From positions 1 through 54,619 of IMG/VR virus record IMGVR_UViG_3300031660_001429: a stretch of DNA of 54,619 nt; one strand, 5' to 3'. The position numbers and the translations under genes were made by a program. Shown piece after piece: positions 33,808 to 53,913 of the stretch (its first letter is position 1; the number at the start of each line of letters is the position of its first letter). The notes below the pieces were generated by a model. It saw only the letters and a list, made by a program, of their open reading frames with translations, was not told the DNA's origin and made no database searches. This DNA is from a virus. Its lineage: Duplodnaviria > Caudoviricetes.

Positions 33808-34755
33808 TCAATCTGTGGTTTCTGGCACATCCCAATCAGCCAGACGAGCTTCTCCAGTTTGGTAGAACTGCTTCACCAACTTTACGTACTCCAGAAAATC
33901 CCTGTTCTCCGTGGCCAGTCGATTGGCCATATCCCAATCGATCTCGTCTCTTTCACGGGCTGGAATCAAGACCTGGCTTTCTGCCGGATTGTCGGCATCC
34001 AGTTTGATCAAACCGATGCCATGTGCCGCAAACAACATGCGCAGTTCTTTGAGCGTGTCCTGCCCCTCGATCTCCGCCGCGACCAAATAGCCGAAGTTCG
34101 CCCACGACGAGTTCGAGACGGCCTGGAAAAAGCATTCGCGCACGTTCGACCGGTTGATCAGCAACTTGGCCTCGAATGACCACAGCTTTGTTCGCTTGTC
34201 TGAATACTGGTTCACGCAGTCCCGCACCTCCTGGTGCCAATCCGCGCCCAAATCCTCCATCCCGACCACGTCCGGGTATAGCCAGCGATTGCCGTTCGGT
34301 CCTCGCTTGTTCGATGAGCGCTTCTCGTCAATGCGCTTTGAGTAAACGCCGAATTCTTCCCACAGATACAGCGAAAGTAGTGGGTACAGCGCGTGCTCTC
34401 CATGCCACTTTCCACTTGTGTCTGCCGCTGGCGTGGCAACCACACTCTCGACCGCAGCCACTTCAGCGACATCGGACATTGTCGAGTAGTAATACTTGCG
34501 TGGCCGCCCCTCGGTTGTCTTTAGCTCCTGGTTACGTTTCTGCAAGCGAGGTCGCTGAGAACTGATCTCAGCAACCAGTTGTTGAACCAAGTCGGCATCG
34601 GTCTTGATGTAATCGCCCCGGCTATTGGATCGTTTCTCTTGGCATTCGGCAGGATATGTCTCAAAAATCCACTCGGCGATCTGTCGAGCGGAGAACTTCT
34701 GTTCTGGATGCGTGGCCAGGTAGTCCACAACCACTTTGCCGAGGTTAAGTGCCAT
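33808..34755 (-). CDS. COG2958/HrgA-like protein (N-terminal HTH + PD-(D/E)XK fold)
   Basis: EH.LYP.L, WLYPDVVG, WSFEAK, FFQAVSNSSWANFGYLV. Confidence 0.8.
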   Translation of the reverse strand: MALNLGKVVVDYLATHPEQKFSARQIAEWIFETYPAECQEKRSNSRGDYIKTDADLVQQLVAEISSQRPRLQKRNQELKTTEGRPRKYYYSTMSDVAEVAAVESVVATPAADTSGKWHGEHALYPLLSLYLWEEFGVYSKRIDEKRSSNKRGPNGNRWLYPDVVGMEDLGADWHQEVRDCVNQYSDKRTKLWSFEAKLLINRSNVRECFFQAVSNSSWANFGYLVAAEIEGQDTLKELRMLFAAHGIGLIKLDADNPAESQVLIPARERDEIDWDMANRLATENRDFLEYVKLVKQFYQTGEARLADWDVPETTD

Positions 34756-34781
34756 CTATGTTTCCCCAATCTTCTTTGGTC

Positions 34782-36119
34782 TCAAGCCGGAACAGCGTTC
34801 AAGTTGTCAGCCCGGGCTTTGTTTGAATTGTCCTGAACGAATGTGACGTCGAATGCTGGCGAAGCTGGCAGCATGAGTTGGCGCTTCGTGAGGCAAAACG
34901 GCAGCACCCAAAGCCGCATCCCATTCGCCTTCGGGAATTCGAAGACAGGCAGCGGTTCTGCAAAGGCGTCTGTCTTGGGATAGATCAATACGATGTCTCC
35001 GTTGCCGTCCAGGTAGTGATGACCATAGGCGTACAGCTGATAGAAATCTGCCTGGCTGAGTTGGTATTTCTCTCGCCCGTTCTTTTTCGCTGAATCCAGC
35101 AGCTTCCACTTCGTGTCCAATACCAAGCGTGTGGTTTGCTTCTGCTTGACCAATAAGTCGGGCTTCAAGCGAAACCATCGCTGAGCGTCGTGCGCAACGA
35201 GGTGCTGACTGCTTGCCTGTGCCTTCAAGACGAAGTCATCGCGTAGCTGCCTCGCCAAGTGCTTCTCGACATACGCCTCAAACACGGCCTCCATCGGAAA
35301 CAGCAGAGAAGGGGCGTGATGCTTTCCCATACCAGAGATGGGGCTGAGACCCTGCAGTATCAGCTTCGCCCAGTCTAGTGCCGACTCGTAGTAGCCCATG
35401 CCTCGATCCAGCCTGATCCGCTGAATGTCCTGGGCGACATCAACTGACAGTGGAACATCCGCGAAGACGAAACCGAGTTCGCGTGCGACTCGCTGGCTCT
35501 CCTGTGACCGGCAAAGGGTCTGCACATGGCGAAGCGCCGTGTGAATCAGTCTGTTCTCTGCGCGGTCCTGCGAAAACTCGTCATGCTCGGTGAAGAACCG
35601 ATCTCGCCTGACCAGATTCTGAGAGATCTGTCGTGCCACCAACAACCGGCCACGAAGTGCAAAGAGGTTGTCCTGTCGCGCGACATAGTCACTGCGCAGT
35701 CCATGCTTGACCAGAAAGCCGACGGCCATCAGGAACTGCTGGATGAACACCTCCAGGAGTGGCATGCGTTCCGCGATCAAGTCCGCGTTGGCTGTTTTGA
35801 TGTGTCGAAACCCAGCCAGGCACTTCAACATCTCGATCAGGAGCGCACGCGCCTGCTCAGGCGAAGTATCCCTTCCGGTCTTTGGCAGTACCTCGATCTG
35901 AAATCCGCAAGGGGCGCGAATAACGCCAACATAGCTGGTGACCTGTATGGCTCGCTGGCCGTTCAGTTGGGTCGGCTTGAGCCAGCCAGGGGCATCTTCA
36001 TCACTTCTAAGGGACTGCGTGTCCAGCCATGCGAAGACACGCTTGGGCACAGCAAGCCCGGCCGCTCCGGCCTTTGCTTCGACGACCTTGTCGAACTCAA
36101 AGATCGTCAGGTAATTCAT
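34782..36119 (-). CDS. mcrC: McrC family nuclease subunit
   Basis: IEVLPK, LLFPMEAVFEAYV, KPDL, LDTKWK, ADFYQLYAY. Confidence 0.9.
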   Translation of the reverse strand: MNYLTIFEFDKVVEAKAGAAGLAVPKRVFAWLDTQSLRSDEDAPGWLKPTQLNGQRAIQVTSYVGVIRAPCGFQIEVLPKTGRDTSPEQARALLIEMLKCLAGFRHIKTANADLIAERMPLLEVFIQQFLMAVGFLVKHGLRSDYVARQDNLFALRGRLLVARQISQNLVRRDRFFTEHDEFSQDRAENRLIHTALRHVQTLCRSQESQRVARELGFVFADVPLSVDVAQDIQRIRLDRGMGYYESALDWAKLILQGLSPISGMGKHHAPSLLFPMEAVFEAYVEKHLARQLRDDFVLKAQASSQHLVAHDAQRWFRLKPDLLVKQKQTTRLVLDTKWKLLDSAKKNGREKYQLSQADFYQLYAYGHHYLDGNGDIVLIYPKTDAFAEPLPVFEFPKANGMRLWVLPFCLTKRQLMLPASPAFDVTFVQDNSNKARADNLNAVPA

Positions 36120-38110
36120 CCGGCGGTCACGTCAGGTTTGGCTGCGTAAATGCCTACATACGCATCTGGTTCATCAAGAGCAGCAGCATTCAACTGGTAG
36201 CGAGAACGAATCGCGTACTGATCCAGCTCGTGCTCACGACCGAAGAGTGCCAGCAGGTCCTCCTCGCGGCCGATTTCATACACGAACTGATGCTCCTGCT
36301 TCGGCTTCTGGTTATCGCCCAAGACCAGTCGAATCTTCTGCCAGTCCTCAAAGAAGTACTCTTCCAGCAGCGGAATGATCTTGTTCCGGAACACGGTCTT
36401 CAGTTCGCTGAAGCGATCTTCATCTTTCAGGTCTTTGATGCGCGTGAAGTAGGCATGGCCCACTGTGTGGTCGCGGTCGTACAGTGCCTCGATCCGCTTG
36501 TTGAGCATTATCAGCAACTGCTCGATGTCGATGCCCACGCCGTTGTGGGAGACGATGGTGCCCGCCAGAACCGAGGGCTTAGGCATTGATTCAATGAACT
36601 CGAAACGGCGGCGAAGCGCAGTGTCGACCAATGCCAACGATCGGTCTGCAGTGTTCATCGTCCCGATCACATCGACGTTCGAAGGCACGCTGAAACTTTC
36701 TGCGGAGTACGGCAGCATCACGGAAACGGGATACATCGCGCCCTCGCGTTTGTCCACTTCCACGAGTGTTATGAGCTCGCCGAAGATCTTGCTGATGTTC
36801 CCGCGATTGATCTCGTCGATCACCATCGCGTACTGTCGCGATGGGTTCTTCCGTGCCCGGTCACAAAGTCTCAAGAAGGCGCCGGGTTTGATCTCGTAGC
36901 GCACCTCGCCATTCGACGCAGCTGCTGTCTCATTGTCCGCCGCGCGCTTCTTGCCTCGCTTGGTGATCACGGGGCGCAGGCCCTCGACAAACTCCTCGTA
37001 CCCGTAGGACTGATGGAAGGTGACGAACTCGTAGCGCTCGCCATACTCAGCGTCGGTGTAGTCCTTCTTGAGCAATGCCTGCAAATCGAATGTCTTGCCG
37101 GTTCCAGGCGGGCCATAGTAGATGACGTTCTTTGGCGGCTTATCGCTTTTGGGCTCGTCTTCAATATCGTAGTCATCGGGCCAGTAGCCGTTGCGCCCAG
37201 CACGCGGTCCGAGCTTGGCTGGCCAACTGCCTTCATCTTTGTCAGCAGCCTCGAAGAGCTGAACCAGCTCGCTGGTGAGATCGGTGGACTCCAGATCATC
37301 CAGCCCGGCAAAAGCAGACCAACTGACCCGGATTCCATCCTTGCGTAAGAACAGCCATCCGACGGGGCCACCTTTGACCGCCCCCTTTTCCTTGCGTCCG
37401 AAGCGCAGCTGACTGTTTGTGGCACGGGTGAACCACCAGTCCAACCCCATTTCGTTTACTGCACGTGCCAGGCGACCGAATAGCTCTGTCGTCGTGGCGG
37501 TCCACAATGGTTGGCGTTCGACGAAGTCTTCATGCCCTTGGAAGTGGTGCAACAAGGTTTCCTGGTCTTGCCCTGCGGATAGGCCCAACTGGTCGGCAAC
37601 TTCGTCGTAGGTCAGTTTGAATTTCTGGATCGATTCGACGCTCCAATCGACCAGTGCGGTGAAGTCCAGTGCGAGCCCCTCGTCAGCTGACTTGATGGCG
37701 ACGATGGGGGAGGAAGTAAGTGGCCCGCGAATCTGTTCGTACTTTTTCCGCAATGCCGGATCGTCGACCTTGATATCTACCAGGTCGATCTTGACCACAA
37801 AACCAAGGTCGGCGTCGATTCCAACCGTATAGGCCAGCCCCTCGGGCGCATTGTTCGAAGGGTAAATTCGCCCCCAGTTGTATGGGATGAACTTTTTTTG
37901 CCACTGATCTGTCGGCTTGCGAACAGTCTTGGTCCATCCGTCCTTGAACAGTTGCTGTTGCAGCGCCTCAGCCCAGTGCTTGGTGATGTCGTATGCCTGT
38001 CCCAGCGCCTCATAGACGCGCTGCTGCTCAGGATTAGTCTTGTCATAGACCGTTCCCTTCCACTTGTTCAGCAGCTTGAAATGGTCGTTGTTGAAATAGT
38101 TCTGTGCCAT
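36116..38110 (-). CDS. mcrB: McrB family AAA+ GTPase
   Basis: GPPGTGKT, TFHQSYGYEEFVEG, IDEINRGN, MNTADRS, IIPLLEEYF. Confidence 0.92.
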   Translation of the reverse strand: MAQNYFNNDHFKLLNKWKGTVYDKTNPEQQRVYEALGQAYDITKHWAEALQQQLFKDGWTKTVRKPTDQWQKKFIPYNWGRIYPSNNAPEGLAYTVGIDADLGFVVKIDLVDIKVDDPALRKKYEQIRGPLTSSPIVAIKSADEGLALDFTALVDWSVESIQKFKLTYDEVADQLGLSAGQDQETLLHHFQGHEDFVERQPLWTATTTELFGRLARAVNEMGLDWWFTRATNSQLRFGRKEKGAVKGGPVGWLFLRKDGIRVSWSAFAGLDDLESTDLTSELVQLFEAADKDEGSWPAKLGPRAGRNGYWPDDYDIEDEPKSDKPPKNVIYYGPPGTGKTFDLQALLKKDYTDAEYGERYEFVTFHQSYGYEEFVEGLRPVITKRGKKRAADNETAAASNGEVRYEIKPGAFLRLCDRARKNPSRQYAMVIDEINRGNISKIFGELITLVEVDKREGAMYPVSVMLPYSAESFSVPSNVDVIGTMNTADRSLALVDTALRRRFEFIESMPKPSVLAGTIVSHNGVGIDIEQLLIMLNKRIEALYDRDHTVGHAYFTRIKDLKDEDRFSELKTVFRNKIIPLLEEYFFEDWQKIRLVLGDNQKPKQEHQFVYEIGREEDLLALFGREHELDQYAIRSRYQLNAAALDEPDAYVGIYAAKPDVTAG

Positions 38111-38114
38111 CGTC

Positions 38115-38810
38115 TCAAATCCCTTCTACGTCCATACCGTGCTCTGCCAGCCAAATCTTTCGTCGCTCGAAATCAGGCAGTGCCCGTTCGACCCGCTGCC
38201 AGAACTCTGGCGTGTGATGTCGTTGGTGCAGATGTGCCAGCTCATGTACAACCACGTACTCGGCGATGCGCGGCGGCAACAGGATGGTCTTCCAGTGAAA
38301 GTACAGCCAGTCGCCTTTGCCGCATGACCCCCAGCGGTAACCCAGATCCTGCACCTTCACGCCAACGGGCCGGACCTCCATGCGTGCCACATAGTCCTGC
38401 ATCTTGTCCCACAGCCAAAGCTTGGCCCGGCCGCTGTACCACTGGACCAAATGGGTCCGGGCGTTTTCGACTAGATCGCGGCGCAACATGAATCGGCCAT
38501 TCAGCAGTTTCAAAGCCACATCCTGTTCATCCACCAGTCGCAATCGGTAGCTTCGCCCCAGGTATAGAAAACCCTCGCCATCGACGTAGCTCTTGGTCGG
38601 TACCGCCTTTTGCAGCCGATCTTTCTCTGCCAGCTTGGTGTAGATCCAGAAGCGCTTTTCCAGGATGAAATCCCGCAGACGATCCTCTTCAACACCGGGT
38701 GGTGCCGACAGCACCAAATCGCCACTGCGATCGACAGTGATCTGCAGCGTTCTGCGCCGACTGCTGGGCTTCAGCTCGAAGGAGAGATCGTCGACGGTCA
38801 GCACACTCAT
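38115..38810 (-). CDS. M48/SprT-like (YgjP/DUF45) zinc metallohydrolase
   Basis: RWGSC, YVVVHELAH....H...FW. Confidence 0.9.
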   Translation of the reverse strand: MSVLTVDDLSFELKPSSRRRTLQITVDRSGDLVLSAPPGVEEDRLRDFILEKRFWIYTKLAEKDRLQKAVPTKSYVDGEGFLYLGRSYRLRLVDEQDVALKLLNGRFMLRRDLVENARTHLVQWYSGRAKLWLWDKMQDYVARMEVRPVGVKVQDLGYRWGSCGKGDWLYFHWKTILLPPRIAEYVVVHELAHLHQRHHTPEFWQRVERALPDFERRKIWLAEHGMDVEGI

Positions 38811-41800
38811 GCCTTGATTAACCTCTCATGGTTGGCCCGGGCCAATTCCAGCAAGCGATCCTTCAGGGCGGAGACATCACCTGGCGCAACCAACCGCGAC
38901 GTGCGCAGCGTTTTGAAGATGCGCGCCCCCAAAGCGTCCTGTGCTGGCCGCTTGTGCGGCTCCCAGAAGGTGTCGGTCAATTCACCTGCAATCATGTCGA
39001 CCAGCTCTACGGTCAGATCACGAATCTTGAGCAGCTGTTCATCAGTCGGGTGCTCACTTCCCGCCACGGCCTCCAGCAGCATGCGCAGGAACGGCAAGTA
39101 ATGTTCTGGCATGTCGGAGGGAGTCAAATCGTCACTACTGGACCCTGTACGCATTTCGTCGATGATCTTTTGTAATGCGGTAATCAGGTCATCCCACTGA
39201 TCCGCCAACGTTTTGAGAATTTCACTTAACCGCTCACTGAGCTTGCGGAACAACACCGGGTCCTCATCCAGATGTTTGCGGATGTGAGAGCGAATGGCGT
39301 GCTCCATCTCCGACGCCTTGGCGCGGTCATTGGCCTGGCGCGATAGATGCGTGTCAAACTCCGCGTCGGTCAGTGCAATCGGTGGGATCTTTGGATCGAT
39401 GCCCAACGAAATCACGTGGTCATCAATCAGCTTGCGAACCTTGGCCCCGACATCCTTACCAAGCGCGGGGGTGTCCTTGTAGCGGTTGCGGGCCCGTGCG
39501 TAGATGTACGAAAGAGTCTTGGCGTCCTTGGAGAAAGGCAAGCCTTCCGGGCGCGGCAGCACCATGTCCAGCGACCCCAGGAACTGCTTGAGCTTGACGG
39601 TGAACTCCGCGCGCAGCCGTTCGTCCGCCAACACCTCGACGCAGGTTTCGACATCGTCCAAAGATTCAATGTCACGGCTGCGGAATAGGTCCACCACACG
39701 CATGTGCCGATCGCGTAACGCCGGTACTTCGTCTTTCAGACTTTGCAATGCACCTTGGATGTCCTCGTCAGCGTAAGCTGCCAAGGCTTCCTTCAGATGT
39801 TGAGCGACACCGTAGTAGTCCACCACGATGCCACAACGTTTGCCGAAGCCTGTTCGGTTCACGCGGGCAATGGCCTGGAGCAACTCTGCCTCGCGGATCG
39901 GCCGATCGAGATACATCACGCCTTCGATTGGCGCATCGAAGCCGGTCAACAGCATCGACTTAACGACTAGGAAAGCCAGCGGGTCGGTCTTTTCCGGTTT
40001 GGTATGGAACAGCGGTTTCTTGAAGCGCTTGATTCGTGTCTCATTGGCCGCCGCGTCGGTCCACAGCTTCCACGCCGGATCGTCGTTGTTGCCACCGGAG
40101 ATCACTGCCGCGAACTCGATCTTCTTCAGCGTGTCGCGATAGCGCCAGGCCTGCACAATGGCTTGCACTTGGGGAGGACGCTGACACAGCGTTTCGTCGT
40201 CCAGCGCCTTGTCTTCGGGTGGAAGCGCTTCGGCCTCGGCCAGCAATTCGGCCCTGGCCGTTTCAAACGCGGCCACGTAGCGCACAGCGGCCAAACGGCT
40301 GTAAGCCACCACCTGCGCTTTGAAGCCATTGGGCAGAATGTTGGTCACGTAGTGGCGCAGCATGTCGCGCGCCTTGTCCGCAATCAGCAGCGGGGCGTCG
40401 AAGATCTGGCCCTTGGTGGCGTACTTCTGCTTGATCGCCTCCAGTTCTTCCGCGCTGCGCTCGCGGAACAAGTCCTCGAACAACTCATCCAAACTGGCCC
40501 CGTCTTTGACTGCACCCTGTGCGGTGCGCCCCTCGTACAGCACGGGCACCGTCGCACCGTCTTCCTCGGCCTCTTTGATCGTGTAACGGTCGATGAATTC
40601 GCCAAAGATCTCGTGGGTGCGTTTTTTGTCACCCATGATGATCGGGGTGCCGGTGAAGCCGATACGTGCGCAGTTGGGTAGCCCCGCCAGCAGATTGGCA
40701 TGCAGATCACCCGCCTGAGTGCGGTGCGCCTCATCTACGAGCACGAGGATGGTCTCGTCCTCGTTCAAAACTTCAAACGTCTTTGTCGAAGGCTTTGCTA
40801 CATAGGCCGCCGCCGCTGGCTCCTTCACCCCCATCTGTCCGTCGTGCCAGCCTTCTGGAATGTCATCCTCGGTCAAGCCCGGCTCACCGGCGGCATCTGG
40901 ATCGCGGTACTTCTGGATGGTGGCAAAGAGCAGCCCCGGCCCTTTGCGGCGCACCAGCTTCTGCACGGCCACTGTGGACGTGGCCACCTCAACCACTTCG
41001 CCGGTCAGCGTTGCCGTGGCGCTGAGCTGGTCCTGCAGGTCTTTGCGGTCTGTAACCACCACCACTTTGAAACGGCGCAGAGTGGCATTCGTTCGCAGCT
41101 TGCGCACCAGGAACACCATGGTTAGCGATTTGCCAGAGCCCTGGGTGTGCCAGATCACGCCACCGCGCCGGTCATACTCGCCATCCTGCAGACGCGTCTT
41201 GCCGCTCTGCAGGCGTTCGATCGCCTTGTTCACAGCACGGAACTGCTGATAACGACAAGCCACCTTGATGGTCTGACCACCTGCCTGCATGAACAGGGTG
41301 AAGTGGCGCACGATGTCCAGCAAGTTGGCGCGGGTGAGCATGCCCGCTACCAAGCGTTGCTGCTCTGAAAGCTGCTCAACGCCAAGGCTGGCCGCAACGT
41401 CTGCCTCCCGCGCCGGTGCCACCGTCTTCCAGCTTGCAAAGTGCTCGAACAAGCCGCCGATGGTGCCCACGCGCGCCTCGTCAAAGCTGGTCGCGATCAA
41501 CAGCTGATTGGTGAAGAAGAGCGGCTCGTTGCCCTCAAAGTCTTCCACCTCGTAGTTGGCGTGCCGCTGGTTGCTGTAGCGGCGCAACTGGTCAATCGCC
41601 TCGGCCAGCGGTTCCGGGACGGAGGGGCTCTTGCATTCCACCACCACCAGCGGAATGCCGTTCACCAGCAATACCAGGTCCGGCACGATGAAGGCCTTAC
41701 CGCTGTTGTAGCCAGGTGGGCAATCCACGCGGTACTGGTTAACGACCGTAAAACTGTTGTTCTCGGGCGTGTCCCAGTCGATGAAGCGGATGGTCTGGCC

Positions 41801-42145
41801 ACGTCCGCCATCCCAGCCGGGCAGGCCATCAACGGTGATGCCGAGCAACAGCAATTCTGTCGCCGCCTGGTTGGCCTCGATTAGTTTGGGCCGCGCAATG
41901 CGCGTGATCGCGGCAACGGCCTCAGACAGGCGTTCATCATCCAGCCAAGGCACGAGAGCACCATCGACTTCGCGCAAGTTGATTTCGGCCAGCTTCTTGC
42001 GCAGCACGCCTTCCTGGATGACTTCCGTGAAGCTGCTACGCCCGGTGACCACGGGGTCGTCAATGCTGCCCTCGATATGCGTCCAGCCCAGACCTTCCAG
42101 TTGTGTGACGAACGGCTTTTCTACGTCCTCAAGTTCCCATCCCAT
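38807..42145 (-). CDS. hsdR: Type I restriction endonuclease subunit R
   Basis: PDLVLLVNGIPLVVVECK, HTQGSGKS, DEAH, LLTGFDAP, QAIARVNR. Confidence 0.95.
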   Translation of the reverse strand: MGWELEDVEKPFVTQLEGLGWTHIEGSIDDPVVTGRSSFTEVIQEGVLRKKLAEINLREVDGALVPWLDDERLSEAVAAITRIARPKLIEANQAATELLLLGITVDGLPGWDGGRGQTIRFIDWDTPENNSFTVVNQYRVDCPPGYNSGKAFIVPDLVLLVNGIPLVVVECKSPSVPEPLAEAIDQLRRYSNQRHANYEVEDFEGNEPLFFTNQLLIATSFDEARVGTIGGLFEHFASWKTVAPAREADVAASLGVEQLSEQQRLVAGMLTRANLLDIVRHFTLFMQAGGQTIKVACRYQQFRAVNKAIERLQSGKTRLQDGEYDRRGGVIWHTQGSGKSLTMVFLVRKLRTNATLRRFKVVVVTDRKDLQDQLSATATLTGEVVEVATSTVAVQKLVRRKGPGLLFATIQKYRDPDAAGEPGLTEDDIPEGWHDGQMGVKEPAAAAYVAKPSTKTFEVLNEDETILVLVDEAHRTQAGDLHANLLAGLPNCARIGFTGTPIIMGDKKRTHEIFGEFIDRYTIKEAEEDGATVPVLYEGRTAQGAVKDGASLDELFEDLFRERSAEELEAIKQKYATKGQIFDAPLLIADKARDMLRHYVTNILPNGFKAQVVAYSRLAAVRYVAAFETARAELLAEAEALPPEDKALDDETLCQRPPQVQAIVQAWRYRDTLKKIEFAAVISGGNNDDPAWKLWTDAAANETRIKRFKKPLFHTKPEKTDPLAFLVVKSMLLTGFDAPIEGVMYLDRPIREAELLQAIARVNRTGFGKRCGIVVDYYGVAQHLKEALAAYADEDIQGALQSLKDEVPALRDRHMRVVDLFRSRDIESLDDVETCVEVLADERLRAEFTVKLKQFLGSLDMVLPRPEGLPFSKDAKTLSYIYARARNRYKDTPALGKDVGAKVRKLIDDHVISLGIDPKIPPIALTDAEFDTHLSRQANDRAKASEMEHAIRSHIRKHLDEDPVLFRKLSERLSEILKTLADQWDDLITALQKIIDEMRTGSSSDDLTPSDMPEHYLPFLRMLLEAVAGSEHPTDEQLLKIRDLTVELVDMIAGELTDTFWEPHKRPAQDALGARIFKTLRTSRLVAPGDVSALKDRLLELARANHERLIKA

Positions 42146-42160
42146 ATTCCGGCCCTTTTC

Positions 42161-43502
42161 TTATTGCGCCAGCAACGGCGTGACCCGGACGCGGCCGGTG
42201 AGAAGGTCGTCCATGAGGCCAATCTTCTGTTGCCTGAGCTTCGCAAGATCAGCCAATTCTTGATTCATACGCAGGGTCGCAGCCTTCAGTCGGAGAGTAA
42301 TTTCGTTTTGCTCATCTACTATCGGCCGCGCAATGGTCAGTTCCGCAAGGATTGCCGTGTTCAGATTCGCCATTGTTGAGCCGACTGCACGCCCAAGAAC
42401 TTGCGACTGGACGCCGGGTTGCTGATAAACCAGAGCTAACCAAAAGGCATTGATCTCTTTCTTGGGGAGGCGCGCAAGAAGACACCCAGTTCCACACAAC
42501 CAGCCGGTGTGCTCATCTTCAATTGCGACACACCTCGACAAATCACCTCGACGAGAAAAAACGATGTCATTTGGAATTAGGCGGTGACGTGAGAGCGCAA
42601 CTGCTTTGCGTGTTGTGATTCGTGCGATATGTTGGACGGAAAGACGCCCATCGATCATGTCTTGAGGCATGACAACGGGAACGCCATCGGCAACATACTC
42701 ATGAGCGTGGAGTTGAGAGCCAAACGGACCCGTCTGCAAGATACCCGAGGATCTTGACGCGATCTGTCCCAGCGTCACGATCTCCCAATCCTTTGGCACC
42801 CACCCCAGCGGCGAGTCTTGATAAAGCTCTGGTGCCTGCTCGTAGCTGGGCCGCAATTCGCCATTGGCATCCACACCCCGGGTCAGCAGGTCATGCAACA
42901 AGCCCTGCTTGACCTGCTTCAGCTTGTCGACGATGGCCTCGGTTTGACGGATGGCTGTGTCGAGAGTGTCCAGCAACTCAGCGATCTTCAGCTTCTCCTC
43001 GGGCGAGGGGCTGGGCAACTTGATGGAGCCAAACTCCGCGCCTGAGATTTCCAAGAAGGTGGTACCGGACGCGCGACGCACCAGCTCAGGCTTCACCTTC
43101 TCAAAGAGGTGGTAGTAGTAGCTGGCTTCCTCTGGCTTCTTGAAGACGATCGACTTGAAACCCTGATTTGTCGCCATTGGCACTGCATTGATCGCACGGG
43201 CACCCAGCGTTGCGCGTGTCGTCACCAGAAGCGAGCCTGCAGGCAGCAGATTTGCGCCACTCCCGGCCAAGCCTGAAAGGCTGATGTGCTCCTGCGTATC
43301 GTGAAGCAGCTTGCTGGCCTCGCCGCTGACTTCGCCAGGCGTGACCCAGGGAATTGGGCCTCGCCAGAACGATGGCACCTCGCGCGACGGCGTACCTCCC
43401 CCAACGACAGCACCAAGCTGCGTGATTTCTTGGTGATCCCAATCGGCTGGCAGTTGACGTAGAAATGCCTCGTACTGATGACGCGGAGCGTGGTTTACAG
43501 GC

Positions 43503-43510
<8 letters not shown>
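42161..43510 (-). CDS. hsdS: Type I restriction-modification specificity subunit S
   Basis: Two TRDs with conserved spacers ([12 protein letters not shown]; [15 protein letters not shown]). Confidence 0.93.
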
Positions 43511-46244
<2,734 letters not shown>

Positions 46245-46290: not shown

Positions 46291-47205
46291 TCAGTCGGCC
46301 TTGCCCATGATGTTTTGTGAGTCAGGCGATCGGTAACCCGGGGCCAGCACTGCGTTCTTTACGCCGTAAAGCGCCAGGTGATCTTTCAGCCAGAGTCGGT
46401 ATTCGTGGCCCCGCAGGCTGTGGTCTGGCGAGCAGTCGACGCTCCACTGACGCAGGATGTACCCAGCTGTGGCTGCGCGAAGTTTCATGGTCAGCACACC
46501 ACGATCCATGGCGTAGTCCATCTCAGTGATCTCTGGACGTGGCTGGTCCGGGTGCGGCACCAGCTCAATTTCTACGATCCGCGTCCACTGGATGTCTTGG
46601 TTACTCATCTCATGAGCTGCAACTGGCTGCCCCTTGAGCACGACAGGGTTCTTGATCCGGGTGATGACGAAATCCCGGAACTCTTGGGACTTCCTGTCGA
46701 AGGCGCGGACATGCCAGCGCAGGCCGTTGTCGATCAATGCGAAGGGAACAATCTCTCGTTCGGACTTGCCACTTGAGATCGAGTAATAGTCGACAGCGAG
46801 AGCGCATTCCTGGTGGATGGCTCGAGTCACACTTGCCAACACATCCAGATCCGGGTGCGTAAGCCGCGACGGACTCTCGCTAGCCACCCACACCTTGAGT
46901 CGCATCGGTTCGCCGTCACCAAATCCTTGAGTCAGCCACGACATCACCCGCTCCGGGGGGTAGTCGAACACGGGCCGGAAGTCCGACCCCAGGACGTAGG
47001 CCTTGCCTTTGGGGTCATAGTCGATGTTGCCGGGAGCGATCTCTTTATACAGAGCCAAGTCCCGGGTGGCTGCGGCCGATTGGATGCCAAACCGCGACAC
47101 CAAGTCCTGACGGCGGATCTCCCCGATGAAGCGCACGCGCAACTCCACAAACGCGAGACGGTCGCGTTGCGGCTGGGTCAAGTCGGCAAGTTGCTCTATC
47201 GACAT
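46291..47205 (-). CDS. WYL-domain transcriptional regulator (BrxR/CapW-like)
   Basis: N-terminal wHTH (LVSRFGI...ATRDLALY), RWHVRAF...FRDFV..RI. Confidence 0.9.
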
Positions 47206-47429: not shown

Positions 47430-50400
47430 ATGGATCAACGGACCCAACCTCGCAGAAGCGGCTCGTACACCGCGAACCTGCTTGGAAACATACGTAGCCA
47501 CTTGGCAGGGCTGCAGGGCTACGACGTCATGGCCCTCGAACTCATCCAGAATGCGGATGACGCCAAGGCGGAGTCCGTTGTCTTCGATATCACCGACCGG
47601 GGCCTTCTTGTTGTCAACAGTGGCAAGTTCACCTACTGCGGTGATCTACACACGCGGCCTTGCAGCTTTATCGCCAGCAACAACTACAGCTGCGACTACC
47701 ATCGGATCGCGGATGTAGGCAGCGGGGGGAAGCTTTCTCGTGGCGAGAACATCGGACGTTTCGGCATCGGCTTCGTCTCAACGTATCAGGTCACTGACCA
47801 CCCGGAGATCCGGTCCTCTGGGGTGAAGCTGACGCTTCACCCGGAAGAAGGACAGTGGTTCATCGAGCCATTCGAGCAACCCGAAGGCACCACGTTCTTC
47901 TTGCCTTGGGCGGACGACCCCAACACCGAGGCTCGACTTGCGCTAGGAGTGTCGCACGTCAGCGCCGCTCACATCGACCAGCTCGCTGACGATTTTCAGA
48001 GAGTCCTTCGCAAGAGCTTGTTGTTCCTCCGGCATGTCCGGACGGCGGAAGTGAGGCGAAACGGCGAACTGCTGTTGGCCTGTGACCTGGATCGTGGTGA
48101 TGGGTCTGACCTGATCGTCAGCTTCCGCCCGAGTGGCGAGGTCGAGCAATGGCACATCTTGCGGGCCGATGTTGCGGAGGCTGCTGCGCGTCTGTACGCC
48201 TCGCATCCCCGCCTTGAGTCGCTCGGTCGCGGCACCAAGATCAGCATCGGGCTCCGGATCGATCCGGAGCCTTTGGCGGAGGGAGTGCTTTACGCGTTCT
48301 TGCCCACCGAGCAGGCGACCGGATTGCCGATGCACATCAATGCCGACTTCTTTCCCGAGTCCGATCGTAAGGCGGTCATCTTTGCCGGGCACCAACATGA
48401 GCAGGCCTGGAACGAGATGCTCATCGATGCCGCCGCTGCCGAACTCGCCAGAGACCCTGAGGGCCTTCGGAAGATGCTCGGAGATGTCCAACTCTGGCAG
48501 ATCCTGGCGCGGGCGTTTGAGCTGTCGAAGCCATCGAACCACCCGGCCTGCTTTAAGCGATTCTGGGAACGATTGAAGGTCACTGGAGCCCAGGCACAAA
48601 TTACCTTGACCCAGGACGGCACCGTTCAACGTCCCAGCGGAGTCTTCCTGCCGCGAGGCCCATTGACAAGCCATCAGGCAAAGACGTTGCTGGAGATCGG
48701 TGGAAGGTTGGTCGCCGAAGATCTGCGGCCATTCCAGACCGCGATAAACCAGTTGGGCGCGCCAATCCTCACGTTCGACCGTTTGGTGACCCTGCTTGAG
48801 CAAGCGATGGCGCAGCAGGTCCCCGGCGAGGTGCAAGTCGAAGCGGACAGGCTGGAGGCCTTCTACCGCCCGCTGTGGAGCATGGTCAACGATCTGCTGC
48901 CGGATGCCGCGAACCAGACGGCAGCCACGAATCCAAGCATTCAGAAATTGCTGGCCATCCCATTCGTCGTCACTGAAGATCTGTACGCGGTCACGATCAG
49001 CCAATCATTTGTGGCGCCGGCGGCGCTGGAGGCTGGACGCGTCGCTTCGTTGCTGCCAAGGCTGGCGATTGCAGCGCATCACATCCTTGGATTTCCAAAG
49101 CTTGCCCGCCTGATCCGGCAACTTGAGCTCGGCGCGGTCGTCAATCACATCAGTTCGATGTGTGCCAGCGAGCCTGTCGAAGATGTCATTGGCGTTGAGC
49201 AGACAGAGTTGCGCGACCTGTATGCCATGTTCGCGGACCTCGATCGTCAAGGCAACGTCGACAAGACGGTGTACCAGGCGCTTCGCAACCTGCCGATCTG
49301 GCTATCCAGTCGAGGTCTCATTAAGGCGACCCAGGCGCTCCTGCCCGGCAACTTCACTGATCCCACCGGACAGGCCGACCTTCTTGAAACGTCCGTCCTG
49401 ACCGATTACGCCAGAGAGTTCGTGTCGAGCAAGCTTGGTGTTCAGACGCAGACGATCGAGGCATTCGTACAAAATGTCCTGCCGAAGTTCTTCAACGACG
49501 ACGGGCCACTGGACGCGCAGAAGTACACCCGCCTCATCACTGAACTCGCCAGCCACCCGGCGCTCGTGAATGACGAGAACATTCGCCGACTGTTGGGAGC
49601 CCTGCCGATCGTGCCGACGCAGGACGGGAATTGGTCGCGCCCCACCAACACCTACAGGCGCACCGATGACTTGGTGAAGGTGCTTGGCGATGCGACGCAC
49701 TTATGGCTCGATGCCAGTCGGGTGCCCAACGCCCGGTCGGTCCACACTTTCATCGACAGCCTCGGAATACGCCGGTCACCGCTTGCGCAGCACCTGGTGG
49801 AGCGGATGCTCTTCATCGCAGAGAAGTACCTGCCGACGGAAGATGCAAAGCGCGCCAGCGGAGAAGCCTTCTATGTCCTGTGTGACCACTACGACGAGTG
49901 GAAGGAGAAGCCATTCTTCCCGGGTGCGATCAACAGCCTCCGTGGGGTGGCGTGCTTCCCGGCTGAAGGCGATACGGAGAACTGGCATTCTGGCGGCGAT
50001 CTATACGCACCATACCGTGCCGAGGCATTCAGGTCTCAGGCCAACATCCTCGATTTCAGAAACACCGCACGCCTGAAAACAGAGCTGCTGGAAGATCTGG
50101 ACGTCACCATCAATCCGGAAACGAGGCTGGTGATCGACCATTTGCAGTACTGCATGAAGACTGGCGCCCAGCCCCACGTTTCGACCTACCAGGTACTGAA
50201 CGAGCGCGTCCGTTCCGATCCTCTGATACCTACGTTGGCAGGCTCCAGATGCATCTATCTGAGTAGCCAGAAGGCATTCGTCAGGCCGAACCAGGTCTAC
50301 TGGACACCGCAGCAGCTCGGGCGCTACGCCTTCACCATTCAAGGTGACTATGAAGTGTTCAAGCCCTTGTTCTCCGCGCTTGGGGTGAAGAACGCACCCG

Positions 50401-52211
50401 AAGGCCGGGACTACGTTGACATCCTGTTGGACATCGTCGGCGAGTACTTCGAACAGTCGAAGCCAGTGGAAGGGGCGGATCGATCGGTGTATGACGCCTG
50501 CTTGATGGGCGTGTCGGCAGCAGACGAGCGTGAGGAGATTGGTGCCCCGGACATTCGAAGGTTGCAAGAGGCACCAACGATATTGAACCTCATGGGGCAG
50601 CCCACGCATCCTGACGAAGTGCTTCTTCAGGACAGCGAGTGGCACGCAGGTTTCTTCAATGGGGAGCTTGATCGGGCTCTGTGCAAACCTGCCCCCGAGC
50701 TGTGGCCGTTCATTGAGAAGGTCGGGGTCAGGCGGCTCAGTGAAAGCGCTGAGGTCGCGCTAGAGTTCGTTGATGGTCAAAGGACTGAGGAACCGCAGCT
50801 TGCCCAAAAGCTGATGGAGAGGATCGACATCCTTGCGCGATTGCTCCACGACAAACCGACGCCAGTCAAACAAAAGGTGCGGAAGGCGCTTTCAGAGCTG
50901 ACTGCCATCAGCTATGAACTGGTGCGCATCCAAGCGTCCGTGCACGTTGGCGGGGATTGGGCATCGGCTCCACCCACGGCAGCGCATGCGTTTTATGACA
51001 TCGACAAACGTCAGCTGATCTTGGCGCGACCGGTGGGAGATCGCAGTTGGCCCCACGTCCTGAATGCCATCTTCCACCAGTTGATGCCAGAAGAGTCTGG
51101 AAGCGAGATCTCGAAACTGACCCTCAGCGTTCGACCGCTGATGAGCATGCCTGTCGAAGAGGCTCACCGAGAACTGACCGATGCGGGCATCCCGTACCTG
51201 GATGCTGAAAGCGCAAGCGGGCAGGCAGATGACTTGACCTCGTCGAGCTTGGACGACATGGGGAGCACGACCGACCCCGGCTACCAGCCAGAGAGCAAGC
51301 CGGATACCGCGTCAGCCGACACGTGCAAAGGTGGGGAACGCACACCGGATAGGCCTGGTACGATTCGGCCGACGGGCGAGCCGAAAACGCCTCACAGGGA
51401 TGAGACACCGCCCGATCCAGGACAACGCGGAACCGGGTCTACGGGCTCGCAAGAACAGACTGTGCCCGCTGGTGACCAGCCTTCTGGGCAGGGCCACGGC
51501 AAGGCTTCGCCGACTGGTGACAAGCGCGCCAAGACGCCACGTCCAAAGCACAAGGAGCAGTGGGATAGGCGACTGCTTTCCTATGTTCGGAAGAAGCAGG
51601 AGGGATCTGCAGATGCCGACGAGCATGAGGGTCCCTCGGAGCACAACCTGGCTGTTGAGGTGGTGGCCCGCTCCGCTGTCTGCGCCTATGAAAAGGCTCG
51701 GGGGCGCGTGGCAGAACAGATGGCCCAAACCCATCCTGGTTACGACATCATCAGCCGAAACCCGCTGACAGGCGAAGACCGGTTCATCGAGGTGAAGGGG
51801 GTCAACGGCGAGTGGAACCAGACGGGCGTAGGCTTGTCCAGGTTGCAGTTCAGCAACGCCCAGGACTACGGCGAGCGCTACTGGCTGTACGTGGTTGAGT
51901 TTGTTTCTGACCCTGAACACACGCGCGTTCACGCCATTCGCAGCCCTGCCACGCAGGTGACGTCGTTCATGTTCGACGGTAACTGGCGCGATGCCGTCGC
52001 CGATGAGCGCGCCGACCCCGCGCTTGCCTTCATCGCCGGCGCCAGGGTGAAGCACCAGCATTTCGGTTTCGGGCGGATCGAGTCGATGGAGCTGCGAGGC
52101 TCGACACGGGTGATGTCCATCGAGTTTGTTACCAGTGGTCGGCGCACGGTCACGCTGAACCTGCAGACGATGACCGTGGTCGAGGAAGACGATGACAACG
52201 ATCATTCCTGA
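47430..52211 (+). CDS. Sacsin-like GHKL ATPase + DUF3883 (NOV-C) nuclease + C-terminal UvrD/PcrA-type Tudor-like domain
   Basis: ELIQNADDA, GRFGIGF, HINADF; GYDI.S....RFIEVKG; GARVKHQHFGFGRI. Confidence 0.85.
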   Translation: MDQRTQPRRSGSYTANLLGNIRSHLAGLQGYDVMALELIQNADDAKAESVVFDITDRGLLVVNSGKFTYCGDLHTRPCSFIASNNYSCDYHRIADVGSGGKLSRGENIGRFGIGFVSTYQVTDHPEIRSSGVKLTLHPEEGQWFIEPFEQPEGTTFFLPWADDPNTEARLALGVSHVSAAHIDQLADDFQRVLRKSLLFLRHVRTAEVRRNGELLLACDLDRGDGSDLIVSFRPSGEVEQWHILRADVAEAAARLYASHPRLESLGRGTKISIGLRIDPEPLAEGVLYAFLPTEQATGLPMHINADFFPESDRKAVIFAGHQHEQAWNEMLIDAAAAELARDPEGLRKMLGDVQLWQILARAFELSKPSNHPACFKRFWERLKVTGAQAQITLTQDGTVQRPSGVFLPRGPLTSHQAKTLLEIGGRLVAEDLRPFQTAINQLGAPILTFDRLVTLLEQAMAQQVPGEVQVEADRLEAFYRPLWSMVNDLLPDAANQTAATNPSIQKLLAIPFVVTEDLYAVTISQSFVAPAALEAGRVASLLPRLAIAAHHILGFPKLARLIRQLELGAVVNHISSMCASEPVEDVIGVEQTELRDLYAMFADLDRQGNVDKTVYQALRNLPIWLSSRGLIKATQALLPGNFTDPTGQADLLETSVLTDYAREFVSSKLGVQTQTIEAFVQNVLPKFFNDDGPLDAQKYTRLITELASHPALVNDENIRRLLGALPIVPTQDGNWSRPTNTYRRTDDLVKVLGDATHLWLDASRVPNARSVHTFIDSLGIRRSPLAQHLVERMLFIAEKYLPTEDAKRASGEAFYVLCDHYDEWKEKPFFPGAINSLRGVACFPAEGDTENWHSGGDLYAPYRAEAFRSQANILDFRNTARLKTELLEDLDVTINPETRLVIDHLQYCMKTGAQPHVSTYQVLNERVRSDPLIPTLAGSRCIYLSSQKAFVRPNQVYWTPQQLGRYAFTIQGDYEVFKPLFSALGVKNAPEGRDYVDILLDIVGEYFEQSKPVEGADRSVYDACLMGVSAADEREEIGAPDIRRLQEAPTILNLMGQPTHPDEVLLQDSEWHAGFFNGELDRALCKPAPELWPFIEKVGVRRLSESAEVALEFVDGQRTEEPQLAQKLMERIDILARLLHDKPTPVKQKVRKALSELTAISYELVRIQASVHVGGDWASAPPTAAHAFYDIDKRQLILARPVGDRSWPHVLNAIFHQLMPEESGSEISKLTLSVRPLMSMPVEEAHRELTDAGIPYLDAESASGQADDLTSSSLDDMGSTTDPGYQPESKPDTASADTCKGGERTPDRPGTIRPTGEPKTPHRDETPPDPGQRGTGSTGSQEQTVPAGDQPSGQGHGKASPTGDKRAKTPRPKHKEQWDRRLLSYVRKKQEGSADADEHEGPSEHNLAVEVVARSAVCAYEKARGRVAEQMAQTHPGYDIISRNPLTGEDRFIEVKGVNGEWNQTGVGLSRLQFSNAQDYGERYWLYVVEFVSDPEHTRVHAIRSPATQVTSFMFDGNWRDAVADERADPALAFIAGARVKHQHFGFGRIESMELRGSTRVMSIEFVTSGRRTVTLNLQTMTVVEEDDDNDHS

Positions 52212-53913
52212 ACTGACCGATGCCCAGCTGGCCGACTTGCCATCCCAGGCAGAGGCAAAGGTCTACAGGGCGTTGAGGGACGGCCTTCCCCGCGACTTTG
52301 TCGTCTTCTTCCAGGTGGGTTGGATCTTGCGCCGAGAAGAAGAGCAGGCCAAGGATGGCGAGACCGACTTCGTCGTCTGTCACCCGGATCTCGGGTACGT
52401 GTGCATCGAAGTCAAGGGCGGCGGCGTCGGGTTCGACTCCAGCAGCGGGGAATGGTTTTCCATCGATCGCCATCATCAAAAGCATGCGATCAACAACCCC
52501 GTCAGCCAGGCTCTGAAAGCCAAGTATTCGATTCGGTCCAAGCTGAATGAACACCAGCGTTGGCGCGATCTGTCGCTCGCCAACGTTCTCAGAGGCCATG
52601 CGGTGTTCTTCCCGGATGTCGGGGATGCGAACGCCCTGAGTCGGCCCGACATGCCGCCGACCCTGATCGGCTGCGCGAAGGATCTCCAAGATCCGAAGGC
52701 GTGGATCGATGCGGTCTTTGCCTATTGGGGTAACGATGCATCGGGATTCACCCCCATGGGCAGGCGCGGCATCGATGTCCTTCGGGATGTGTTTGCACGC
52801 TCTTTCGTAGTCGCTCCGCTGATCTCGTCGCAGTTGGCCGACCAGGAGGCGCGTCGACTGGTTCTCACCAAGGACCAGATTCGCGTGCTCGATTTCCTGC
52901 GCTCCCACCGCAGAGTCGCCGTCAGCGGTGGCGCAGGCACGGGCAAGACTGTGTTGGCACTTGAAAAGGCACGTCGCCTTGCATCCGAGGGGTTCCGAAC
53001 GCTGCTGACTTGCTACAACCGGCAGCTCGCGGACCACCTATCAAGTCTTTGCTCAGCCACCCCGAATCTGGATGTGATGAGCTTCCACCAACTGTGCCAC
53101 CGGCAGGTTGAGAGGGCCAATCGTGCATCTGGGCGGGATCTGGTTTCCGAAGCCAAGGTCACCTATCCGGGCAAGGATCTCTACGAGGTGCAACTACCCA
53201 ACGCGCTCGGATACTCCCTCGAAATCCTCCCGGATCGGTACGACGCCATCGTCTGCGACGAGGGCCAGGACTTTCGCGAGGAGTTCTGGGTTCCGCTCGA
53301 GTTGCTACTGACTGACTATGACAGCAGCCCGCTGTACGTGTTCTACGACGACAACCAGAACCTGTATGCCCGCGCAGGGACTTTCCCCATCCGCGACGAG
53401 CCATTCTCGTTGACTACGAATTGCCGCAATACGGCGCCGATTCACGAAGCCGCCTACAAGCACTACAAGGGCGTGCCAGTGAGTCCACCTGACATTCAGG
53501 GTGATGACGTTCAGTTTGACGAGTCGCCAAGCCGAGACCCACAGGCAGCCAAGATCAATGCTCGCATCGTCGACCTGGTTGCGAAACAGGGTGTCGCGCC
53601 CGGCGACATCACGGTGCTGGTGGCCGATGCCCTGCACAAGGCCGAGTACTACGCTGCCCTGAAAAGACTTCCGTTGCCGAAGCCAGCGACTTGGCTTGAG
53701 GAGGGGGTTCGAGGCAAGTCCACTGTCCTGATCGACACCATCCAACGGTTCAAGGGTCTCGAATCGCCGATCGTGATCTTGTGGGGTTTGGACACCATCG
53801 ACTTGTCACAGCGGCAAGAACTGCTCTACGTCGGCATGAGCCGCGCGAAGTCGCTGCTGGTCATCGTGGGGCGTGCGGCAACTTGCGCTTTATTCAAAGA
53901 TGCGACACTCTGA
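52192..53913 (+). CDS. NERD nuclease + SF1 (UvrD-like) helicase
   Basis: ETDFVV...IEVKGG; GGAGTGKT; DEGQD; N.RN; FKGLE; YVGMSRA. Confidence 0.9.
   Translation: MTTIIPELTDAQLADLPSQAEAKVYRALRDGLPRDFVVFFQVGWILRREEEQAKDGETDFVVCHPDLGYVCIEVKGGGVGFDSSSGEWFSIDRHHQKHAINNPVSQALKAKYSIRSKLNEHQRWRDLSLANVLRGHAVFFPDVGDANALSRPDMPPTLIGCAKDLQDPKAWIDAVFAYWGNDASGFTPMGRRGIDVLRDVFARSFVVAPLISSQLADQEARRLVLTKDQIRVLDFLRSHRRVAVSGGAGTGKTVLALEKARRLASEGFRTLLTCYNRQLADHLSSLCSATPNLDVMSFHQLCHRQVERANRASGRDLVSEAKVTYPGKDLYEVQLPNALGYSLEILPDRYDAIVCDEGQDFREEFWVPLELLLTDYDSSPLYVFYDDNQNLYARAGTFPIRDEPFSLTTNCRNTAPIHEAAYKHYKGVPVSPPDIQGDDVQFDESPSRDPQAAKINARIVDLVAKQGVAPGDITVLVADALHKAEYYAALKRLPLPKPATWLEEGVRGKSTVLIDTIQRFKGLESPIVILWGLDTIDLSQRQELLYVGMSRAKSLLVIVGRAATCALFKDATL

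Follow-up and report, generated by a model that had tools for sequence, protein, structure and literature searches.

What does a domain of the kind found at the C-terminus of UvrD and PcrA, two repair helicases, do at the end of an ATPase-nuclease? The question is raised by the tmtA gene in a virus record of IMG/VR (IMGVR_UViG_3300031660_001429), whose whole stretch of 54,619 bases was analysed and is called the window here. The gene encodes a Tiamat protein, TmtA, of 1593 amino acids (aa), and the gene directly behind it encodes a helicase of superfamily 1 (SF1) that also bears a NERD domain, termed the NERD-helicase below. In an earlier reading made from the letters alone (the sequence-only reading) it was proposed that a UvrD/PcrA Tudor-like domain has been appended to the nuclease rather than to the helicase, and that it may serve to recruit the nuclease to stalled or phage-modified RNA polymerase (RNAP) or may act as a decoy sensor for phage proteins. 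Based on our analysis, the tail is, as judged by sequence comparison, a true homologue of the Tudor domain of UvrD/PcrA that has diverged on the Tiamat nuclease, and it travels with the helicase gene. The explanation that we favour, and that we hold to be rather probable, is that the tail is an adaptor tying the nuclease end of TmtA to the NERD-helicase of the overlapping gene. The proposed recruitment to RNAP or decoy function is not supported, and the adjacent NERD-helicase is the better-supported partner.

It is noted first that the open reading frame (ORF) at 47430..52211 is the Tiamat protein, because the PADLOC TmtA model PDLC03969 matches it from end to end (model positions 1-1563 of 1563 against residues 1-1583, 2320 bits); this model dates from 2023 and already extends through the tail. 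Counted from the end of the NOV_C nuclease domain at residue 1496, the C-terminal extension has 97 residues, of which the last 60 make up the tail, with position 52020 of the window falling in codon 1531 of tmtA and the stop codon lying at 52209-52211. The peptide with the G-x-x-V-x-H-x-x-FG-x-G pattern, to which the sequence-only reading had drawn attention, is present at residues 1534-1574, the full pattern being G1537-x-x-V1540-x-H1542-x-x-F1545-G1546-x-G1548-x-I1550 ... I1564-x-F1566 ... G1570. The C-terminal 214 residues of TmtA have 379 homologues; among the matches listed, the 120 close ones are 74-98% identical, and both the tail and the nuclease extension before it (residues 1497-1533) are kept in 120 of 120, while a precomputed PF21196 label (the UvrD/PcrA Tudor family) is found on three of them. 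The same extension was used as the alignment anchor across cluster representatives, a search of which (1.84 billion) gave 1799 matches, with 149 new proteins among the 150 listed.

From the tails of these representatives a profile, A1, was made, which comprises the last 70 residues of 66 tails and of the window's own (67 rows, 18-71% identity to the window). Searched against the PDB, A1 finds the C-terminal domain (CTD) of Escherichia coli UvrD (6yi2) at E 1.3e-9, followed by 7egs_B (1.4e-9), 9dqs (6.8e-8), 4c2t (1.9e-7), 9dci (5.8e-6) and PcrA (5dma, 2.3e-5), the top nine all being UvrD/PcrA, with CarD and SETDB1 appearing only at E > 0.02 and the CarD chains at E 0.18-0.41. In the opposite direction, 50 of the 67 A1 tails give a PF21196 match with E <= 0.01, the best of them at 2.2e-10; DUF3553 (4 members) and CarD_TRCF_RID PF02559 (3 of 67) come next. 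The comparison by hhalign of A1 with 32 UvrD tails, which come from the five host genomes and from 27 loci of a set of 30 (L061, L067 and L076 being left out), gives a probability of 98.5 and an E of 1.9e-15 over 60 columns. Moreover, in each of these five host genomes (5/5), all of which carry the system, A1 matches at just two sites. One is the tail of TmtA; the other is the C-terminal end of a frame identified by scanning as UvrD/PcrA, with E between 8.7e-12 and 1.9e-7. The single sequence of the window points the same way, with the best phmmer matches in the PDB being 9dqs (E 0.011) and 9dci (E 0.033), with all five PDB matches at E <= 10 being tails of UvrD, UvrD1 or helicase II, and with the NCBIfam UvrD model touching TmtA residues 1480-1578 at E 0.0095.

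Beyond these genomes, an A1 match at E <= 1e-4 occurs in 117 of 201 genomes sampled from one phylum, where 109 of the 122 matched frames are 690-872 aa long, the identity having been checked in six cases. A 1673-aa frame in genome G204 was considered as a TmtA and rejected, since it is UvrD with an open upstream frame. Note also that a class of TmtA-like proteins of ~1870-1970 aa (P0225, P0227, P0231, P0241, P0244, P0266 and P0271) has a beta-rich end of similar length and rhythm; these ends lie out of reach of the hidden Markov model (HMM) of the tail, and they may be a further diverged barrel.

The fold agrees with the homology. AlphaFold2 (AF2), run on residues 1524-1593 with a 52-row alignment that combines rows taken from the DNA of the window and of the loci with whole short proteins, gives a five-stranded Tudor/SH3-like barrel with a short N-terminal helix, with a mean predicted local distance difference test (pLDDT) of 88.4 and a core of ~96. 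The strands run over 1539-1542, 1546-1556, 1559-1566, 1570-1575 and 1581-1583. In the PDB, Foldseek places 5dma (2.1e-3), 7egs_B, 9dqs and 6yi2 first for this model, their E values lying between 2.1e-3 and 6.7e-3, and the top three by VIA-align are 9dqs_B (Z 7.5, root-mean-square deviation (rmsd) 2.3 over 53 residues), 5dma (Z 7.3, rmsd 2.2 over 52 residues) and 7egs_B (Z 7.1, rmsd 2.4 over 54 residues), with 21-26% identity to the tail. The Tudor-like RNAP interaction domains of Mfd (RID) and CarD, which according to the available passages of PMC5397179 bind the beta1 lobe by sheet extension, share the general fold, but stand lower in the fold lists, match the sequence weakly and have no significant sequence relation to the tail. 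The UvrD/PcrA Tudor-like identity proposed before is therefore borne out by the profile search, by hhalign and by the predicted barrel alike.

The other half of that proposal, that the domain sits on the nuclease rather than on the helicase, needs a correction. The tail does sit on TmtA, and the adjacent helicase does end without it, its motif VI (VGMSRAK, residues 547-553) being followed by the C-terminus 20 residues later, with no PF21196 row at E <= 1 and no match of the tail HMM at E <= 10. The framing is off, however, in that the neighbouring helicase is not a UvrD/PcrA orthologue, so that no Tudor tail is to be expected on it. It is recognised by PADLOC as RTasNERD-Hel (E 2.1e-66) and as 'NERD+UvrD', and by Foldseek its AF2 model (pLDDT 89.9) comes closest, among solved folds, to Schlafen 11 and Schlafen 14 of humans, with E values between 2.7e-19 and 1e-14, then to Upf1, UvrD and RecD2. 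A weak SLFN-g3_helicase match is seen in Pfam too.

We now consider which gene the tail accompanies. An intact tail is present in 31 of the 35 genome loci, and in 25 of these 31 the next gene downstream is the helicase, which is intact in 20, has an assembly gap or a frameshift in 2 and extends beyond the contig in 3, the start of each of the 20 intact helicase genes lying inside the end of tmtA. As for the loci that have no intact tail, in L033 (1942-6393 of a Rhodothermales genome) TmtA ends directly after FMFDGNWRQAAE, without the Tudor tail, and no NERD-helicase is found within 6 kb; in L035 the tail is frameshifted and the helicase intact; and in L029 and L030 the sequence stops near the contig end. 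The overlap arrangement is kept in the distant pair of genome G103, the two proteins of which have 35% and 42% identity.

The survey that starts from the helicase gives the same association. Among 80 metagenome loci, with helicases of 27-95% identity, a TmtA nuclease lies upstream in 30, and the tail HMM matches at E <= 1e-3 in 27 of these 30, the other three (L113, L115 and L123) having a divergent beta-rich end of 60-65 aa that looks similar and falls below the threshold. By contrast, the 30 loci with no upstream TmtA, where at least ~800 nucleotides (nt) of upstream sequence are present, have 0 tails. The remaining 20 of the 80 are those not judgeable on both features; among them, L125 and L129 have a tail visible in 169-214 nt of upstream sequence. 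In 16 of 21 scanned TmtA-less loci the MrfA zinc-binding (MZB, PF09369) domain occurs near the C-terminal end of the upstream frame, and it seems that the partner protein and its end domain change along with the helicase clade. The helicases concerned are the more distant NERD-helicases of L137-L168 (~27-36% identity), which in 16 of the 21 frames scanned follow a large MZB-bearing protein; they are without the helix-turn found at residues 317-329 of the window's helicase.

With the homology and the linkage at hand, the proposal of recruitment to RNAP can be weighed. If this proposal is true, the tail would bind the T-G-E beta-hairpin of the RNAP beta subunit, or of UvrB, and bring the nuclease to a transcribing or stalled polymerase, which is compatible with helicase binding; the T-G-E hairpin in RpoB and UvrB is the known partner motif (PMC8318588). 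It has in its favour that the UvrD/PcrA homology is real and that the PcrA residues H681, W684, K712 and L714, the mutation of which weakens the pull-down of RNAP according to the available part of PMC5397179, have conservative counterparts in H1542, F1545, R1572 and V1574. Against it, two of the four residues of the UvrD aromatic cage, which the available text of PMC7585439 gives as H678, F681, W709 and Y714, are lost, W709 being replaced by T1573 and Y714 by L1578; more generally, K-W-L ... Y-A-x-L of UvrD has become K/R-x-L-P/T-L-N ... M in the TmtA tails, and the near-invariant E-G hairpin of UvrD is R-G here. The residues that are retained in the window are also less strictly kept in the family, with H in 41/67 tails, an aromatic residue in 44/67 and K/R in 50/66 (61-76%), whereas the 32 UvrD tails all have the H and show F and K in at least 90% of cases. 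Moreover, the linker is short, compared with the disordered one of UvrD1, of which 38 residues were not observed (PMC11912403), and the tail tracks the helicase gene and not any polymerase feature. We regard this proposal as unlikely.

The lost residues bear also on a different proposal, in which the tail would be a module that binds DNA weakly and without specificity and helps the nuclease to hold single strands. The E. coli UvrD CTD binds DNA weakly, in single-stranded as well as in double-stranded form, via F681, W709, Y714 and a basic surface, as the available passages of PMC7585439 have it, and the barrel of the tail has seven K/R versus three D/E. However, two of the three DNA-contacting aromatics are lost, a strongly acidic stretch comes after the barrel, the PcrA CTD bound no DNA (PMC5397179, in the part available), and the restriction of the tail to one helicase clade would be left unexplained. 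We give this module a very low probability.

The linkage with the helicase gene would instead be expected if the tail is an adaptor to the NERD-helicase, and a complex prediction run with controls supports this. For the helicase with the tail (22-row and 52-row alignments, respectively) the score is 0.63, whereas the best of 3 controls has 0.00; of 80 solved complexes 58 attain this mark, and of 110 mismatched pairs 2 do. At least 95% of the contacts are shared between runs, and the pLDDT of the partners is at least 81. The predicted contacts fall at residues 320-344, 362-376 and 397 of the helicase and at residues 1531, 1544, 1556-1559, 1561 and 1573-1580 of the tail. In the AF2 model the docking site consists of a helix (317-324), a YPGKD turn, a second helix (330-342), motif II (DEGQD) and the helix 363-371, and judging from the order of the SF1 motifs the insert 317-342 is probably 1B-like. 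That helicase residues 320-331 form a beta-hairpin extending the Tudor sheet, by analogy with RpoB and UvrB, was considered and rejected, since AF2 shows a helix-turn-helix. The docking site has a distribution of its own, with the segment 319-327, 'EAKxTYPG', being present in 29/29 TmtA-linked helicases that cover it and, among the 26 TmtA-less helicases that cover it, in L107 and L131 only, both of which belong by identity to the TmtA-linked clade; in the MZB-linked helicases it is absent through deletion or unrelated sequence. On the side of the tail, the residues conserved among the TmtA tails and not in UvrD, namely R1556 (R/K in 45/67), G1557 (60), N1577 (49) and P/T1575, are predicted contact residues, R1556 standing opposite E363/E364 in the model and N1577 opposite T324, N337 and Y341. 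In addition, across 48 pairs of helicase and tail, a change of residue class at position 337 of the helicase goes with one at position 1559 of the tail (N-T/S, V/I-V/I and F/Y-F/L).

In the adaptor explanation, the beta2-beta3 hairpin (R1556-G-S-T1559) would sit on the helicase insert between motifs Ia and II (317-342) and on helix 363-371, and the beta4-beta5 segment (T1573-T1580, with the P/T-L-N motif) would contact those helicase elements too. The helicase would then unwind or thread the DNA, and the single strands would be handed over to the TmtA nuclease. A preference for single strands is described, in the passages available, in a preprint of October 2026 (10.64898/2026.09.30.754977) from work on the tail-less Tiamat of Bacillus cereus. 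Docking of a Tudor domain on an SF1 core is also seen in UvrD1 of Mycobacterium, where it rests between 2A and 2B (PMC11912403), a site different from the one predicted for the TmtA tail.

That docking in UvrD1, where the domain turns back onto a helicase core, is also a precedent for a further alternative, in which the tail acts inside TmtA, for dimerisation or for auto-inhibition of the nuclease; one possible docking site would be the T-G-E hairpin in the protein's DUF3883 domain (NPLTGEDRF, 1444-1452). A T-G-E turn is indeed present in the nuclease domain, and the same preprint, in its available passages, predicts that C-terminal extensions aid the dimerisation of the nuclease domain in tail-less clades. 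On the other hand, the strict motif [VIL]-D-x-x-T-G-E-[VIL]-[VILT] is found in neither TmtA nor the helicase, similar G-E turns occur in tail-less relatives as well, and the linkage with the helicase would be left unexplained, so that an action of this kind appears quite improbable. As an observation on its own, two loose T/S-G-E turns recall the target hairpin of the UvrD Tudor domain, NPLTGEDRF at 51768-51794 (TmtA 1447, nuclease domain) and FDSSSGEWF at 52435-52461 (helicase 85, NERD domain); neither is within the predicted interface.

The predicted interface bears on the RNAP proposal too. It leaves out H1542, F1545 and R1572, so that their face may stay free for a second partner. A tail with two faces can then be envisaged, in which the R-G hairpin and the L-N-L segment would hold the helicase while H1542, F1545 and R1572, as the ancestral UvrD face, would still grip the T-G-E hairpin of RNAP beta or UvrB. 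We deem this combination distinctly unlikely. If it is true, however, the tail would bring a ready-made ATPase-nuclease-helicase machine to the complexes that transcribe or repair the invading DNA, and transcription of phage DNA would be part of the target finding of Type I-G Tiamat, the Tiamat type to which the locus belongs.

A number of observations weigh against the homology or against the adaptor explanation as given above, and we collect them here. The window's tail alone gives E 0.006-0.012 and 15.9-16.8 bits with PF21196, with 16.3 bits in the scan of the genome, and does not reach the Pfam gathering cut-off of 23.9, and the 66 tails of A1 were chosen by eye from the 149 representatives. 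With Foldseek the tail has no PDB match at E <= 0.001, and by VIA-align generic Tudor domains such as that of PHF1 (Z ~7.0, 11-14% identity) come to a near tie with UvrD/PcrA (Z 7.1-7.5), so that by fold alone the tail is 'Tudor-like', and it is the sequence that assigns it to the family. As to the linkage, L003, L004, L012 and L022 have an intact tail with only remains of the helicase, and L025 and L028 have an intact tail with no helicase within reach; these six cases mean that a tailed TmtA can persist alone. In L004 the helicase is cut by a transposase-like sequence, in L003, L012 and L022 only ~70 N-terminal codons are kept, and at L022 a DUF772 transposase adjoins. As to the interface, the calibration of the complex score holds only roughly here because our alignments were self-made and unpaired. 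The switches at 337/1559 follow clades and therefore amount to few independent events, and in the inter-protein mutual information over the 48 pairs (Neff, the effective number, 31) this pair ranks 460 of 40,110. Interface pairs number 2 in the top 100 (0.79 expected) and 8 in the top 400 (3.1 expected) of the covariation; we set mutual information aside as support, this interface enrichment of only ~2.5-fold being too weak. Finally, the interaction claim of the preprint itself, as far as its available passages go, rests on structure prediction only.

The features of the locus and its surroundings are collected in Table 1.

Table 1. Coordinates of the features in the window, with the basis of each assignment
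Feature	Position	Strand	Basis
McrBC	34782-38110		
YgjP-like metallopeptidase	38115-38810		
Type I hsdR/S/M	38807-46244		
WYL-domain protein	46291-47205	-	PF13280, E 7.8e-13
tmtA, Tiamat protein of the Type I-G kind, 1593 aa	47430..52211	+	PADLOC, Pfam SACS + NOV_C, NCBIfam P_loop_sacsin
Sacsin-like GHL ATPase N-terminal domain, residues 33-134	47526..47831	+	PF25794 SACS E 2.1e-19; NF047352 E 2.8e-15
NOV_C/DUF3883 PD-(D/E)xK nuclease-like domain, residues 1410-1496	51657..51917	+	PF13020 E 7.7e-18
Nuclease extension (V..I.SPA..V.SFMFDGNW) and short acidic linker, residues 1497-1533	51918..52028	+	Conservation
PcrA/UvrD-type Tudor domain, residues 1534-1584	52029..52181	+	AF2, Foldseek, VIA, profile searches, hhalign
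Acidic end EEDDDNDHS and stop codon	52182..52211	+	Read from the sequence
NERD + SF1 helicase, 573 aa, predicted partner of the tail	52192..53913	+	Pfam NERD, AAA_19, UvrD_C_2; PADLOC; AF2
Predicted docking site, helicase residues 317-371	53140..53304	+	Complex prediction, secondary structure, motif distribution

At the junction of the two genes, a Shine-Dalgarno-like site GAGGA (52182-52186) and the ATG of the helicase (52192) lie within the codons of the acidic end of TmtA, so that the genes overlap by 20 nt, and an equivalent overlap is found in related loci. The segment 52182-52211 is dual-coding, since it specifies the conserved EEDDDNDHS as well as the ribosome-binding site and first six codons of the helicase, and part of the conservation of the acidic end may stem from this overlap.

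As for the setting, the window is rated as a virus with a completeness of 56%, and phage structural genes (terminase, portal, S49 protease, baseplate and tail) occupy ~11-31 kb of it. After these come McrBC, the type I restriction-modification genes and the WYL-domain protein, then tmtA and the helicase gene, with a defence island at 33808-46244 abutting the phage tail genes. The WYL-domain gene is divergent from tmtA. That a WYL regulator is a fixed part of the system was considered and rejected; since it lies upstream of tmtA in only 3/36 related loci, it is local and not part of the Tiamat system. Likewise, that the Tiamat system is typically phage-borne was rejected, with 1 other viral contig as against 35 genome loci, and with only this one other viral contig carrying Tiamat the right end of the window may be host DNA or prophage cargo.

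The locus is a member of Type I-G Tiamat, defined in the available passages of the preprint (10.64898/2026.09.30.754977) as Tiamat plus a NERD-helicase, and no structural difference is found between the two: both have the ATPase, the DUF3684 region, the PD-(D/E)xK nuclease, a C-terminal extension forming a beta-barrel (83-100 aa there, 97 here) and the adjoining NERD-helicase. Those passages report biochemistry for the tail-less B. cereus Tiamat only and give the I-G complex by prediction with AlphaFold 3, where, in 12 homologues with interface predicted template modelling scores (ipTM) of 0.67-0.86, the barrel lies on one face of the helicase; they call the barrel 'SH3-type', 'unique' and helicase-recruiting. 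In the available main text the words 'Tudor' and 'RNA polymerase' have 0 occurrences, and a literature search found nothing relevant joining Tudor with DUF3883 or Tiamat. The system, its barrel and the likely recruitment of the helicase by that barrel are thus already described in the preprint. The gain from the present analysis is modest and consists of the homology, the divergence of the surface, a docking segment specific to one clade and the counts of the linkage.

It is useful to set the tail beside other known systems. With the Tudor domain of PcrA/UvrD (PF21196; 5DMA, 6YI2, 7EGS, 9DQS) it shares the five-stranded barrel, the frame G-x-x-V-x-H-x-x-(F/W)-G-x-G ... F ... G-x-K-x-L, the place at the extreme C-terminus and a role as protein-protein adaptor in a system centred on an SF1 helicase, the last of these being only probable for TmtA. 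It differs in that it ends a GHL-ATPase/nuclease after a short linker while the helicase is a separate gene, and in that its predicted partner is the helical insert of the NERD-helicase, where RpoB or UvrB would present a T-G-E hairpin. The MutL-UvrD pair, an analogy drawn in the available passages of the preprint, likewise has an SF1 helicase whose recruitment and loading are the work of a GHKL-type ATPase, but MutL acts on the 2B domain of UvrD and not via a Tudor domain (PMC8318588), so that homology of the contacts is not implied. BrxHII of BREX and related Swi2/Snf2 helicases also combine a Tudor-fold accessory domain with an anti-phage helicase system, as given in the available part of PMC12839542; there, by description, the Tudor domain is set apart in being RapA-like, N-terminal and on the helicase itself.

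A part of a poorly understood defence protein is now tied to a well-studied adaptor for which solved structures are available, among them 7EGS, which contains the RNAP lobe, and 7EGT, which contains UvrB. Candidates for mutation are, on the tail, R1556, T1559 and N1577 and, on the helicase, N337, E363/E364 and the helix-turn at 317-329. For the biology of these systems it means that the adaptor of a repair helicase can be moved onto another enzyme and, if the predicted docking is right, retuned to a new partner.

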